Virus record (IMG/VR): IMGVR_UViG_3300016674_000136
Coordinates: 1-34,106 of that record
Length of the DNA: 34,106 nt
Reading direction: 5' to 3' (one strand)
DNA from: a virus
Taxonomy: Duplodnaviria; Caudoviricetes
Part shown: positions 19,008 to 34,106 of the stretch, piece after piece
Layout of the letters: every line of letters begins with the position of its first letter
Numbering within the stretch: position 1 is the stretch's first letter
The notes under the pieces: model-generated
The model's input: only the letters and a program-made list of their open reading frames with translations
The model's database searches: none
Told to the model about the DNA's origin: nothing
Program-made: the position numbers and the translations under genes

Positions 19008-19038
19008 AATTGTATGTCAGTTGTGAGTGATTCGCAAC

Positions 19039-19941
19039 TTAGATGTTGGTCACACCCTTCAGACGCGCCACGGACTTGGTGGACTTCAGCGCGAGGCCGG
19101 TGTACCACTTCAGACGGATGCGGGTTGCGTCCTTGTTCTGCACCGTGCCGATGTTCTCGACCACGATACCGGCGTCACCGCCACCATACAGACCGTGCAG
19201 ACCGTCCAGCTCGTTCAGGCGCAGGGCGTAAACGGAGCAGGTGTCGGTTGCGGAGCCCTGGTCTTCGGTGCCGTCCAGGAACTCGTTCATGATGATGGGA
19301 ATGCCGTTGTGGGTCAGCATCGGGCGACCGAAGTTCTCCAACTGCTGCATCACGGCGTCGGTGCCGTAAGTAGCGCGGAGCAGACCACGGTAAGCGCGGA
19401 TGGTGCCACGACGCATCACCAGCACATCAGCACCGTTGGGCACGGCGTCGCACAGCTCGTCCAGCATGGACATGGTGAGCGCGTTGCCGTTGGCACCGGC
19501 AGTGATGGTTTGGCTGCCGGAAACCAGTTGGGGCAGACCGTCGAACTCCTTGGCGTTCGTGGTTGCATTGCCCTTGGCCAGAGTGCGGTGGAACTCGCGT
19601 GCCACGGCTTTGGCCTTCTTGGCGATCTGGATCGCCATCTGGTCGTTGTGGTCCTGCATCGTGGACTGGAGGAACTTGTCCACATCAACGTCACCAGCCA
19701 GGATGCGCAGCTTGGCCACCACTTCGGTGAACGTTGCAGCGCTTTCGCTGATGGCTTCGTTGGGGTCCAACCATGCAGCAGAACCCAGAGTGTTCTCGCG
19801 GTTGTACACGTAGGCTTTGCCGCTCACGCCCACGAAAGGCAGAATGGCAAACAGATCATCGCGGTCGATGATTTCGTCAATGACGCCCGAAACGAGCTGG
19901 TTATTACTCAGTTTCTCGGCTTCAGCTTTCAACAGAGGCAT
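19039..19941 (-). CDS. Major capsid protein (HK97 fold)
   Basis: 300 aa, follows the scaffold gene; motif LAKGNATTNAKEFDGL and C-terminal VARLKGV; has its own promoter, RBS and terminator. Confidence 0.9.
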   Translation of the reverse strand: MPLLKAEAEKLSNNQLVSGVIDEIIDRDDLFAILPFVGVSGKAYVYNRENTLGSAAWLDPNEAISESAATFTEVVAKLRILAGDVDVDKFLQSTMQDHNDQMAIQIAKKAKAVAREFHRTLAKGNATTNAKEFDGLPQLVSGSQTITAGANGNALTMSMLDELCDAVPNGADVLVMRRGTIRAYRGLLRATYGTDAVMQQLENFGRPMLTHNGIPIIMNEFLDGTEDQGSATDTCSVYALRLNELDGLHGLYGGGDAGIVVENIGTVQNKDATRIRLKWYTGLALKSTKSVARLKGVTNI

Positions 19942-29319: not shown

Positions 29320-30876
29320 ATGGCAAAAGAAATTCCTCCGCAGACGGTCACGATTGCCTACAACGCGACCATCGCAAAACTTCATGAACCCACCCGAGCT
29401 ATGAAGCTGCGGGTGATGTCACTTCTTTCCTACAAAGTTGAGGGTGCGGAACATTCCGCATCGTTCAAGGCAGGCACGTGGGACGGCCGTAGCTCGTTCT
29501 TCAACTTCAACGAGGGAACTTTCCCGGCAGGCTTCGTCAACTTCGTCGCCGGCAACCTCACTCGGGAGGGTCACAAGGTCAACCGGGTGCGCAAGCCTCT
29601 GCCTCTGCCTTTGGGCCCCGAGAACCCGAAGATCGACTCGTTCCCGGAAGACCCTCGCTACGACTACCAGATGGAGACCGTCAACCGCCTGGTGAAGTAC
29701 GGCTCCATGATTGCTCAGGTCGCTACGGGTGGCGGCAAGTCACGGATCGCACGCCTGGCGTTCATGCGGATCAACCGCCCTACTCTGTTCCTCACGACGC
29801 GCTCGATCCTGATGTACCAGATGAAGGACGCGTTCGAAGAGCTGGGCGTGCCCTGCTCGGTTCTGGGAGACGGCCAGTTCGGTCACACGGATGCTGAGGG
29901 CCGGCAGTTCATCAAGAAGATGAGTGTCGGCATGGTGCAGACCCTGGTGGCTCGACTTCAGGAGCCCGATCCACGCGATCCGCCCGAGGTTCAAGCCAAG
30001 CAGGCTGCGATCCGCGCTCAGACGATCAGCCTGCTGTCCAAGTTCGAATTCGTCATCGGTGAAGAGGCTCACGAGGCTTCGGGCAACTCCTACTACGAGA
30101 TTCTTCGGCACTGCAAGAACGCTCACTACCGCCTGGCGCTGACCGCGACACCTTTCATGAAGGAGAGCGAAGAGTCGAACATGCGGTTGATGGCGGCGTT
30201 CGGCTCCATCGGGATTCGCATCTCCGAGAAGATGCTGATCGACCGTGGCATTCTGGCCAAGCCGATCTTCAAGATCGTGAAGCTGTCCAAACAGCCCGAA
30301 GGCTTGCGTCGAAACACGCCCTGGCAGGCTGCCTACCGACTGGGCATCGTGAACAATGCGGAGCGCAACGATCTGATCGTCCAGGAGGCGATGCGGGCGG
30401 CCCGCAACGGTCTGTCCACGATGGTTCTCGTGCAGCAGAAGGCTCACGGGGAGCTGCTGGAGGCCAGCCTGAAGTCGAGCGGGGTTCGCGCTCAGTTCAT
30501 CTTCGGTGAGAACAACCAGAAGGAACGCAAAGAAGCGCTTACCAAGCTCGCCACTGGTGAGATTCAGGTGCTGATCGGTTCAACCATTCTGGACGTTGGT
30601 GTTGACGTTCCCGCTGTCGGCATGGTGATTCTCGCGGGCGGTGGTAAAGCCGAGGTCGCAATGCGTCAGCGGATCGGCCGTGGTCTTCGTGCGAAGAAAA
30701 GGGGGCCGAATATCGCCTTGATCGTGGACTTTTTGGACGAACACAACCACTATTTGAAGGATCACTCGATGCAACGGCTGAACATTCTTCGACAAACGGA
30801 AGGCTTTGCGGAGAATATCCTGCCGATGGGTGACTTCGATTTCGCAGCACTGGGTCTTGAAAGGAAAGCAGCATGA
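29320..30876 (+). CDS. Superfamily 2 DNA helicase (UvsW/D10-like)
   Basis: Q motif YDYQ, Walker A ATGGGKS, motif II EEAH, motif III TAT, motif V GVDVP and motif VI QRIGRGLR. Confidence 0.92.
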   Translation: MAKEIPPQTVTIAYNATIAKLHEPTRAMKLRVMSLLSYKVEGAEHSASFKAGTWDGRSSFFNFNEGTFPAGFVNFVAGNLTREGHKVNRVRKPLPLPLGPENPKIDSFPEDPRYDYQMETVNRLVKYGSMIAQVATGGGKSRIARLAFMRINRPTLFLTTRSILMYQMKDAFEELGVPCSVLGDGQFGHTDAEGRQFIKKMSVGMVQTLVARLQEPDPRDPPEVQAKQAAIRAQTISLLSKFEFVIGEEAHEASGNSYYEILRHCKNAHYRLALTATPFMKESEESNMRLMAAFGSIGIRISEKMLIDRGILAKPIFKIVKLSKQPEGLRRNTPWQAAYRLGIVNNAERNDLIVQEAMRAARNGLSTMVLVQQKAHGELLEASLKSSGVRAQFIFGENNQKERKEALTKLATGEIQVLIGSTILDVGVDVPAVGMVILAGGGKAEVAMRQRIGRGLRAKKRGPNIALIVDFLDEHNHYLKDHSMQRLNILRQTEGFAENILPMGDFDFAALGLERKAA

Positions 30877-31130: not shown

Positions 31131-31316
31131 ATGAACCATGCGCTGATCATCAACCTTGCCATCATTGCGGTGGTCGTTCTCGCTCTCATTCTCACCCTCA
31201 ACCCGATGTGTCTGTTTGGCCTGTTCCTGCTGCGGGAAATGCCCTACGGTCTGCTCCAGCGGGAACCTGAAGAGGAAGAAGGTCGCCCCATCGGATTTGT
31301 GCATCCCAAAGACTGA
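31131..31316 (+). CDS. Small membrane protein with an acidic C-terminus ending RPIGFVHPKD
   Basis: RBS AAAGGA; hydrophobic N-terminal 33 aa; preceded by a perfect palindrome at 31106-31119. Confidence 0.65.
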   Translation: MNHALIINLAIIAVVVLALILTLNPMCLFGLFLLREMPYGLLQREPEEEEGRPIGFVHPKD

Positions 31317-31806: not shown

Positions 31807-32012
31807 CCACGACAGTCTCCCGTGTCCTCATGAACGGTGAGGCTGCCGAGCTGTTGATGGAAACGTGCCGTCTGGTTCGCAACCTGGGCGGCGCGTTTTC
31901 CATCGACCAGGAGTGGGCCAGCAACGACTGGTACGCAACCTTCACGATTCACTGGCCAGATCGGTCACTCGTGACTGCAACTTCTGGGGGTTCCGATGGT
32001 AATGCCGACTAG
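31803..32012 (+). CDS. Hypothetical protein
   Basis: GTGA overlap with the previous gene and a GGAG RBS. Confidence 0.55.
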   Translation: MTTTVSRVLMNGEAAELLMETCRLVRNLGGAFSIDQEWASNDWYATFTIHWPDRSLVTATSGGSDGNAD

Positions 32013-32442
32013 GCCGGTTTCGGTGCGGCCACCAGCGCCGCTCAGGGATGCAGCGTTAGCCATCAAGGAGCCCATCGCTAAGTACAAGGCGTACAAGGCT
32101 GTGCTCATTGGCGAGTCGAATGACCTTTCCAGTCTTGCGGATCGGCTTCGGGCGCTCAGAAACCTTCTCACCTGGGCCGAGAACGAGTACCAGCGTCGTC
32201 AGAAGGCAATTCGAACCTTCACCGATGATGGCTACAACCAGTCGTGCGTCAAGGAGGCCGACCTCAAGGGTCTCACTCTGGTCGAAGCCAACATTCTGGT
32301 GTGGGTCGCGACCTCGCCGAAGTTCTACGAGCAAGAACTGAAGGAAATCGCCGACACCCTGTACGAAATCGAAGGTGGCCAGCGAGACGACACCGAATCG
32401 TCAAGGGACGTTCCAAAGACCAGCACGGGAGAAGCGTGGTGA
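31996..32442 (+). CDS. Hypothetical helical protein ending in TGEAW
   Basis: 148 aa ORF tiled between its neighbours; its stop overlaps the next start (GTGA). Confidence 0.65.
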   Translation: MVMPTRPVSVRPPAPLRDAALAIKEPIAKYKAYKAVLIGESNDLSSLADRLRALRNLLTWAENEYQRRQKAIRTFTDDGYNQSCVKEADLKGLTLVEANILVWVATSPKFYEQELKEIADTLYEIEGGQRDDTESSRDVPKTSTGEAW

Positions 32443-32888
32443 GAGTTCTTGTCTGTGGCGGCCGCGACTACACGGACTCCGCCTTCGTGGATTTCGTTCT
32501 GGACTCGCTGCACGCGAAGAAACCCATCGAGCTGATCATCCAGGGCGAAGCCCAGGGTGCGGACTCCTTTGCGAAGAAGTGGGCCGAGAAGACGCCAGGC
32601 TGCACCTCCTATGGTGTGCCGGCCGACTGGAAAACTCACGGCAGTCGAGCGGGCCCGATTCGAAACCGTCAGATGCTGGAGTACGGCAAACCCAACCTCG
32701 TCGTTGCTTTCGAAGGCGGTGCGGGAACCCGAGACATGTGTGCTGCGGCAACCTCCGCCTGGGTGAAGGTGATCTTCGCCGAGAAACTCCGGCCGCACTT
32801 CAAACCTTCAAAATCCGAAAAAGCGGCATGTGGGTGTGATGTGCTGCCCTGGGAAGACTGCGAACACACGCGAAAGGAGAAGCGATGA
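32439..32888 (+). CDS. SLOG-superfamily (YspA-like/DUF2493) protein
   Basis: RVLVCGGRDY, IIQGEAQGAD, ADW..HG..AGPIRNRQML and VVAFEGGAGTRDM. GTG start at 32439 with a GGGAG RBS. Confidence 0.85.
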   Translation: MRVLVCGGRDYTDSAFVDFVLDSLHAKKPIELIIQGEAQGADSFAKKWAEKTPGCTSYGVPADWKTHGSRAGPIRNRQMLEYGKPNLVVAFEGGAGTRDMCAAATSAWVKVIFAEKLRPHFKPSKSEKAACGCDVLPWEDCEHTRKEKR

Positions 32889-33145
32889 TTTCCTATGAAG
32901 AGTACCTCTGGTACAAAAACCTCTACAGCGGCGCTCTTGAAGAGCGTCACGTGGACAACCAGAACCTTCGAACCTTGACTCGGGATGAGTGGGACAGCGC
33001 TCATTCCGACGCCCGGATCGGCGTCATCGTCTGGCTGAAGGTGCAACTGCTTGACATGAACGTGGCGTTCAAAGAGTACGTATGTCAGCCTCTGAAGGAG
33101 GCTCCGCTGATGCACTACGAACAAACTCACGGGAGCGCATGGTGA
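32885..33145 (+). CDS. Hypothetical protein, one SYExY...Wx7R domain, ends YEQTHGSAW
   Basis: AGGAG RBS and ATGA overlap; paralogous to the next two ORFs. Confidence 0.75.
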   Translation: MISYEEYLWYKNLYSGALEERHVDNQNLRTLTRDEWDSAHSDARIGVIVWLKVQLLDMNVAFKEYVCQPLKEAPLMHYEQTHGSAW

Positions 33146-33354
33146 GTGAAACATACTCCTACGAACTGTACGTGGAGCTTCGCACGAAGCTGCGTCCTGG
33201 CAGAAAGCCTCCCATCACGAAAGAAACCTGGGGCGGGATGAAGGAGTACGACCGCGAGGGAACGATTCTCTGGCTGCGGCAAACGCTGAAGAAACGCGAA
33301 GACGAGCAGGCGAAATTCGCCCCCTATCAACAAACTCACGGGAGTGCATGGTGA
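33142..33354 (+). CDS. Hypothetical protein, one SYExY...Wx7R domain, ends YQQTHGSAW
   Basis: GGGAG lies 6 nt before GTG 33142 (ATG 33139 is the alternative); GTGA overlap with the previous stop. Confidence 0.75.
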   Translation: MSETYSYELYVELRTKLRPGRKPPITKETWGGMKEYDREGTILWLRQTLKKREDEQAKFAPYQQTHGSAW

Positions 33355-33980
33355 ATCCACACGACTACGCTCTATACAAAGCCACGGCCGAAAAACTGGG
33401 CCTTCAGATCATCTTCACCGAACAAAGGTGGAACGAACTGAAGGATGTCGAGCGCAATGCGGTGCTGGCCGACCTCTGGAAAGGAAAGAAAGAACAGCCG
33501 TCGAAGATTCTCGGTCTGAAGGCTGACAAGTGGTGGGTGGACGAATTCTCGTCACCCAACGAAATCGACGTTTCTTACGAAGCCTACCTGGAAGCCAGGA
33601 AGGAAGCGCTGAACCTTGGGGTTGTCGGCATTCGGTACGATCCCATCGACCAAGAGGGCTGGGAACAGACGGTGATCGAAGCCAGAGAGAAGGTCATGAG
33701 AAACTTCCAGGGACTCATTGAGGCTCAAAAGAAGGAACTTGAAAAGACGCTCGACACCTCCTACGAGAACTACCTGCGGCTGCGCGAGCGAGCAAAAGAA
33801 GTTGGAGGCATTCGTCTGGCCTCAGAAGCTCGCTCGGCTAGGGGCTGGGAGAGTCTAAGCCTGCCTGCGAAGCGCAACATCGTTCGGCGAGTGACGGCTC
33901 ACCTTGCTTTAATGGAGAAGCAGCAAAACGAACTTCGGAGCATGGATCAATACGCTCAGACTCACGGAGCGGCGTGGTAA
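33348..33980 (+). CDS. Hypothetical protein, three SYExY...Wx7R domains, ends YAQTHGAAW
   Basis: Coupled start (ATG 33348 or GTG 33351); an internal triplication is visible. Confidence 0.8.
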   Translation: MVNPHDYALYKATAEKLGLQIIFTEQRWNELKDVERNAVLADLWKGKKEQPSKILGLKADKWWVDEFSSPNEIDVSYEAYLEARKEALNLGVVGIRYDPIDQEGWEQTVIEAREKVMRNFQGLIEAQKKELEKTLDTSYENYLRLRERAKEVGGIRLASEARSARGWESLSLPAKRNIVRRVTAHLALMEKQQNELRSMDQYAQTHGAAW

Positions 33981-33989
33981 TCTCGGCTG

Positions 33990-34077
33990 TATAAGGACGT
34001 TCTGGCAGGAACCGGGGTCTGGCCATATAAGGACGTTCTGGCAGGAACCGGGGTCTGGCCATATAAGGACGTTCTGG
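33990..34077. repeat. 36-bp perfect tandem repeat, about 2.4 copies
   Basis: TATAAGGACGTTCTGGCAGGAACCGGGGTCTGGCCA at 33990 and 34026; the first 16 nt recur at 34062. Confidence 0.95.
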
Positions 34078-34106
34078 GAAGGTGGAAGACGAGGAAGGGA
34101 GCGCCC

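Follow-up and report, generated by a model that had tools for sequence, protein, structure and literature searches.

A group-wide aromatic-glycine C-terminal tail on small proteins of SSU5-like phages

Introduction

Why do three adjacent small phage proteins end in almost the same nine residues? In a 34-kb fragment of a tailed phage, analysed as a whole record (34,106 nt, hereafter the window), proteins of 86, 70, and 210 aa form the end of an operon 3' of a helicase gene and carry closely similar C-terminal tails. The original prediction regarded this tail as a docking or sorting signal that is under selection at the peptide level and recruits several proteins to one partner. SSU5-like elements, to which the window was assigned here, form the largest set of related phage-plasmids in enterobacteria, according to the accessible text of PMC7969092. 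Most of the small genes of these elements lack annotation.

Assignment of the window to the SSU5-like phages

Family matches identified capsid, terminase, ParB-like, ABC-like, and helicase genes in the window. The helicase is 53% identical to that of Stenotrophomonas phage BUCTxx99, 49% to that of RHEph10, and 48% to that of SSU5, and its identity to uncultured contigs reaches up to 81%. These identities indicate that the window derives from an SSU5-like phage. Its virion genes and helicase-ParB-ABC core are homologous to those of the group and conserved in order. The helicase, ParB-like, ABC-like, terminase, portal, capsid, and tail families are held in common with the SSU5 supergroup, and 17 families are common to the window and all 14 compared genomes. 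The window differs from SSU5 itself, as the helicase identity of 48% illustrates, and belongs to an uncultured branch.

Table 1. Features of the window around the tailed operon.
Feature	Position	Strand	Remarks
SF2 helicase	29320..30876	+	Synteny anchor; places the window among SSU5-like phages
Fourth tailed protein	31996..32442	+	Tail KTSTGEAW, same motif class; start may be 32101
Untagged gene within the operon	32439..32888	+	phrog_289 match, E = 1e-24
86-aa protein	32885..33145	+	One three-helix domain copy; tail YEQTHGSAW
Tail copy 1	33116..33145	+	Contains GGAG and the GTG start of the next gene
70-aa protein	33142..33354	+	GTG start; one domain copy; tail YQQTHGSAW
Tail copy 2	33325..33354	+	Contains GGAG and the start of the next gene
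210-aa protein	33348..33980	+	Three domain units (first weak); tail YAQTHGAAW; last operon gene
Tail copy 3	33951..33980	+	TAA stop; no coupled gene
36-bp tandem repeats	33985..34092	+	TATAAGGA core; mark the operon end

Tail copies in the window

The three tails were present as predicted. A degenerate 30-nt pattern representing them occurs at exactly three places in the window and had no match in 100 dinucleotide shuffles. Direct reading of the sequence confirmed that copies 1 and 2 are identical at 27 of 30 nt; copy 3 and copy 1 share 21 of 30. The synonymous changes claimed for copy 3 (CAA>CAG, GCA>GCG, and TGA>TAA) were all found, together with GGG>GGA. Copies 1 and 2 had also been said to supply the ribosome-binding site and start of the next gene, and both GGAG and GTG do lie inside them. 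GGAG is located 6 nt before the GTG within TGGTGA and 3 nt before the ATG, and this spacing makes GTG the likelier start. A public gene call (P0007) also begins at GTG; an in-frame ATG at 33139 would extend the 70-aa protein to 71 aa. The statement that copy 3 has no evident downstream gene held in that nothing but a 6-codon frame and the 36-bp repeats comes after it; the contig, however, has only 126 nt left beyond this copy.

The fourth ORF ends in TGEAW, as had been noticed, and also contains CACGGGAG, in a different frame. In relatives, its slot carries the tails KTSVGEAW and TTEGAFW. The phrog_289 gene between the fourth ORF and the 86-aa protein is presumably YspA-like.

Relatedness of the tailed bodies

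The bodies of the three proteins had been described as highly diverged. They are diverged, but five units of the three proteins align on Y-x-x-Y and a Trp, and a profile search identified three domain stretches in the 210-aa protein. After removal of the tails, a model built from 45 other proteins still matched the bodies of the 70-aa (E = 2e-13), 210-aa (E = 5e-14), and 86-aa (E = 1e-6) proteins. Judged by these matches, the three are duplicated paralogues of one small three-helix domain. The fourth ORF falls outside this family (E = 0.07 with the same tail-free model) and is the only ORF in the window with an unrelated tailed body.

In the predicted structure of the 70-aa protein, helices span residues 8-18, 28-33, and 36-64, and the tail is of low confidence, with a pLDDT of 56-57 at residues 61-71 versus 85-93 in the body; the tail is thus predicted to lie outside the folded domain. 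Searches of Pfam, PHROGs, ESM Atlas, and PDB sequences returned no named family or fold for the body, and the best structural Z score was 5.4; these results do not make the fold new. A search for full-length homologues of the 210-aa protein returned none, and when one family member was used to scan GTDB, two weak, uninformative matches resulted, neither of which indicated a host.

Among 72 profile hits of the three-helix family, 61 end in W, two in F, three in WG, and six otherwise; four of these six are long proteins that look like chance matches. The profile included the tail, and with body-only scoring 47 of 50 still ended in W, F, or WG. Fifteen family tails read YxxxHGxxW, and others read WGSW, WGDW, or WGMF. 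Since one family carries both registers, we treat them as one signal.

The likeness of the window tails is due partly to descent from paralogous proteins, and taken alone it could still reflect duplication plus a ribosome-binding site. Under this explanation, the tail has no peptide function and is a by-product of tandem duplication, a ribosome-binding site, and an overlapping GTG start. The paralogy, the near identity of copies 1 and 2, the ideal spacing of GGAG, and the out-of-frame CACGGGAG in the fourth ORF are all in its favour. Evidence for a peptide signal therefore had to come from other genomes. A scan of viral contigs for the exact tail gave nine matches, none of them at the end of a real gene.

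Tailed genes at the same locus in relatives

We read 45 of 63 helicase loci. Arrays of W-ending genes with different tails were found at the loci L017/L040, L060, L061, L064, and L072; tails in the arrays of relatives include YNQRYGVAW, FGGDHW, PKTTVEVVW, and DYGDAW. Three other loci have one W-ending gene each after the helicase. Many helicase loci, including four close ones, showed no tagged array within 7 kb, some of them being incomplete. At L061, three unrelated proteins end in IGTW, SGTW, and VGTW, with the stops TAA, TAG, and TAA and without start overlap. In the cultured phage ANB28, YGxW-type tails occur on nine consecutive annotated genes of the helicase locus; in JGB6, four genes there carry them.

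Two features of these records are added here. In L060 (12200-12960), the tagged operon appears, on reading the sequence, to be separated from the helicase by an inserted LuxR-like gene. The JGB6 record has many of its core genes broken into fragments, probably through sequence errors.

Selection on the peptide

Genes were counted in the 14 genomes and the window with our own crude gene caller, which missed some. Because the tail pattern is permissive and the genomes share ancestry, the p values assume more independence than the data have. At a Trp content of about 1.3%, W-ending genes amounted to 13/153, 14/164, 16/165, and 18/163 in four uncultured genomes and to 9/112 in an Acinetobacter-type genome. 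Among the annotated ANB28 proteins entered, 15 of 163 end in W (p = 4e-8). W ends were not enriched in SSU5 (3/116, p = 0.15) or in the genome G009 (2/128); these two have two tails each, those of SSU5 being divergent. RHEph10 has no W ends and seven to eight ends of the NPxFG[RM]F type. The window tail is one dialect of a C-terminal motif, aromatic-Gly-x(1-2)-aromatic, that each of 15 SSU5-like genomes has on roughly 2-17 proteins.

The loose pattern matched 120 of the 2067 called genes, some of them surely falsely. Position counts in these genes gave aromatic-G-[STA]-W/F. Their stops comprise 60 TGA, 44 TAA, and 16 TAG, and their penultimate Ser codons fall into both blocks (15 TCN and 13 AGY). 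No called gene lies within 20 nt downstream of 41 of the 120, and 36 show a -4/-7 overlap. Among genes followed by a gap of at least 20 nt, 51 of 1066 end in W, against 14.4 expected. The final genes of the arrays in the window, L061, and L072 retain the W.

The use of all three stops and both Ser codon blocks, together with the retention of the tail in uncoupled genes, supports the predicted selection on the peptide. Homologues do not keep merely the nucleotides of the ribosome-binding site and start, as the W persists with TAA or TAG stops and without start overlap. Duplication plus translational coupling, although consistent with the 36 overlapping genes, fails to explain the 41 tagged genes without a close neighbour, the half that use TAA or TAG, the two Ser codon blocks, and the W of the last array genes; it is largely refuted and, in our judgement, extremely improbable. 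The ribosome-binding site shapes only the local GG-AG register: the Gly-Ser/Gly-Ala positions of the peptide signal double as ribosome-binding site, and the window dialect arises because the longer register HG-E/S/A-x-W puts GGAG 5-6 nt before GTG. Of the signal as first described, the shared C-terminal character stands, but the exact YxQTH represents no more than a local dialect that the three proteins have in common partly through descent.

Carriers and dialects

The tail is found on unrelated bodies, namely the WGR proteins (8/8), a post-SbcC family (8/8), ExoX-like proteins (4/4), and two BRCT proteins, which are both stand-alone domains within the nine-gene array of ANB28; all six members of the phrog_5241 family end in W. 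One family is tagged in only two of its eight members, so tails can be gained or lost. Tagged genes recur in fixed slots, following primase or the helicase or lying around SbcCD and RuvC, and these slots are kept even where BLAST finds no link between the bodies. The linkers in relatives are of a Pro/Thr/acidic type.

The dialects are NPxFG[RM]F in RHEph10, NYGxW in ANB28 and JGB6, and FGxW[AS] in Pseudomonas phage nickie, which has about ten tails in the same slots, nearly all extended by one Ala, Ser, or Gly. As this extra residue shows, the aromatic need not bear the free carboxyl. Each lineage keeps to a single dialect genome-wide, which points to one co-evolving reader, and a genome-wide shift such as that of nickie would best be explained by one reader per lineage. 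The dialects could follow the host lineage as well as the phage lineage.

A reader with one defined pocket would be dispensable if the tail acted as an aromatic sticker and gathered proteins into a phage replication condensate. Many of the tails follow acidic, Pro-rich linkers, and the Trp of McdB also tracks condensate formation, according to the accessible text of PMC11321042. The strict Gly, the fixed spacing to the C-terminus, and the one-residue shift in nickie nevertheless fit a shaped pocket better, and we regard the sticker as very unlikely.

Two tail-pattern scans of 2.9 million viral contigs gave 123 matches. All 43 matches in loci with at least three SSU5-like genes end a frame of at least 50 aa, many of the 43 being repeats of three enterobacterial proteins. 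Another 34 loci were too short to class, and elsewhere most of the frames were short, with a few exceptions. One of these is a large terminase in the record L272 (3615-5024), an unrelated 46-kb phage that has no CobT match; its end, NNNPTWGMF, reflects either chance or an outside use of the tail.

These scans bear on a host reader. A host protein might recognise the tail as a degron for a cytoplasmic protease or as a ligand of a host hub, and the tail would then govern how long many early proteins persist or where they are located. Protease signals often have aromatic termini, and the dialects differ among phages of Rhizobium, Xanthomonadales, Pseudomonas, and enterobacteria, both of which suit such a reader. 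A host protein should, however, serve other phages of the same hosts too, whereas the two scanned patterns are almost confined to SSU5-like loci and the phages Pollock, ICP2, CRP-810, and Demosthenes are without the tail. We therefore consider a host reader unlikely.

Comparison with known docking tails

Known docking tails include those of bacterial SSB, T7 gp2.5 and gp4, and the clamp-binding proteins of T4 and RB69. Like the phage tail, they combine a flexible linker with an aromatic end, and the clamp serves as the common reader of several proteins. Their motifs are different, being acidic-Phe or LxxF-like and placed on known enzymes, whereas the present tail reads aromatic-Gly-x-aromatic and sits on small proteins without assigned function. 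The consensus for beta-clamp binding is QL[SD]LF-like, and the position counts above do not follow it. With a peptide conserved at the extreme C-terminus and common to unrelated proteins, the tail would, on sequence grounds, fall into the docking-tail class.

The tail also resembles McdB, in which a short C-terminal motif with a Trp that is partly replaceable by other aromatics docks an adaptor (accessible text of PMC11321042). McdB differs in being one protein per system with a carboxysome shell partner and, in the alpha type, the end V(I)WPD (accessible text of PMC8359340); the phage tail occurs on many unrelated proteins per genome, has an aromatic-Gly before the last aromatic, and is associated with no carboxysome. 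The window tails end in GxAW rather than V(I)WPD, and their neighbours are phage genes, with no microcompartment operon. The tail is a member of no named motif family tested.

A literature search, with supplements and most subscription journals outside its scope, found no publication on the tail; in the main texts as accessed, 'C-terminal' does not occur in PMC7969092, nor 'motif' in the ANB28 paper. The tail is thus a genuine, peptide-selected, group-wide motif of docking type and apparently undescribed. The shared C-terminal signal of the original prediction is borne out in this form; docking on one partner is a proposed role.

Candidate readers

We place at about even the probability that the reader is one phage-encoded non-structural protein, likely of the replication-recombination module. 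The leading single candidate, itself still doubtful, is the CobS-CobT MoxR AAA+/vWA motor; SbcCD, the helicase-primase, a gp32-like SSB, or another core family are the next candidates. CobS-CobT is favoured for two reasons. Bacterial WGR proteins are encoded with MoxR-vWA systems. In cells, moreover, CobT acts as the adaptor that links the CobS ring to its client (bioRxiv 2026.07.21.739949, accessible text). CobS-CobT, a motor pair of the kind treated with CbbQ-CbbO in the accessible texts of bioRxiv 2026.10.09.757910 and 2026.07.21.739949, is encoded in all 15 SSU5-like genomes tested, one of them a fragment, and hence wherever tails occur in this set. About 20 other core non-structural families are equally universal, and co-occurrence therefore does not single out this pair. 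Three unrelated phages that encode CobS-CobT differ in being without the tail: none was found among 64 called genes in each of ICP2 and CRP-810, and Demosthenes gave one doubtful tail in 85. CobS-CobT is thus not sufficient for tails. The cellular motor differs further in acting on one folded client through a large surface, and the accessible texts of the two preprints describe no short-tail adaptors. No CobN-type client was evident among the annotated SSU5-like genes examined. Complex prediction of CobT with Mg and residues 40-71 of the 70-aa protein scored 0.18, the mark being 0.32. The predicted fold of the core family phrog_2500 is all-helical and gave no match.

One other gene was rejected as a universal reader. 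The FtsH-like gene of ANB28, coding for a classic AAA ATPase of 481 aa (L091, 11517-12962) directly upstream of the nine tagged genes and about 52% shared with N4-like and KPP25-like phages, is absent from the three genomes tested, and the neighbourhoods of its relatives in Pollock and KPP25 are without tails. The HslV-like gene of RHEph10 is likewise absent from these three genomes.

The partner might instead belong to the virion. Tagged proteins that bind the procapsid, scaffold, or portal could be packaged and injected with the DNA; conservation of the capsid, portal, and scaffold extends throughout the group, and McdB needs its C-terminal Trp motif to bind a protein shell, as the accessible text of PMC11321042 reports. 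The tagged genes, however, are found not among the head genes but in the replication-recombination region and in the operon behind the helicase, the scaffold's own end is of the GLKGL type and unlike the tail, and a literature search on virion proteomics of the group found nothing on point. Capsid loading is, in our estimate, distinctly improbable.

Proposed role of the tail

With a phage-encoded reader, the Gly-x-x-Trp tail, borne on a flexible linker and bound as a terminal peptide, would plug each three-helix protein into one pocket of a single phage core protein, and dozens of unrelated tagged SSU5-like proteins would use the same pocket as exchangeable adaptors. Each body may bind its own target, which could be DNA, RNA, or a host protein, and deliver this target to the reader. 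More targets would come within reach as body-plus-tail cassettes duplicate, and where genes form coupled arrays, the tail codons would double as the ribosome-binding site of the next gene, selecting the HG[ESA]xW register. We propose only tentatively that an ATP-driven phage machine, CobS-CobT or another core protein, reads the four-to-five-residue tail as a plug-in adaptor system. It is likewise no better than a speculative possibility that grafting the tail onto small binding domains yields new targets and that the three-helix family is a fast-expanding adaptor set. If true, bacterial viruses would possess a counterpart to substrate-receptor libraries, of which the F-box proteins are an example. 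Through their common tail, as much as about a tenth of the proteins of a genome would belong to one pathway; the tail could give the phage CobS-CobT pair its first role and could serve as a portable five-residue tag that recruits proteins to a phage machine or virion.

Other features of the window and its relatives

Clusters of two to three TATAAGGA cores follow the same operon in seven of the compared genomes, and none were found in SSU5, RHEph10, or JGB6. A single core lies at about 29292 on the minus strand of the window, between the helicase and ParB-like genes. The repeats are possibly a protein-binding site near the genome end.

A Cys-rich core family (L075, 15285-15875) always adjoins the tagged slot after primase and often ends in a PGET-x-x-(Q/D)-x-A-x-R helix, which looks like a second shared motif. 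In the same record (19026-19307), an Hfq-like gene, present in nine of the 15 SSU5-like genomes, is located just upstream of the DnaB-like helicase. A small membrane protein at 31131-31316 of the window, conserved in five compared genomes, has an acidic run and ends in PIGF; its IGF recalls the ClpP-docking loop of ClpX.
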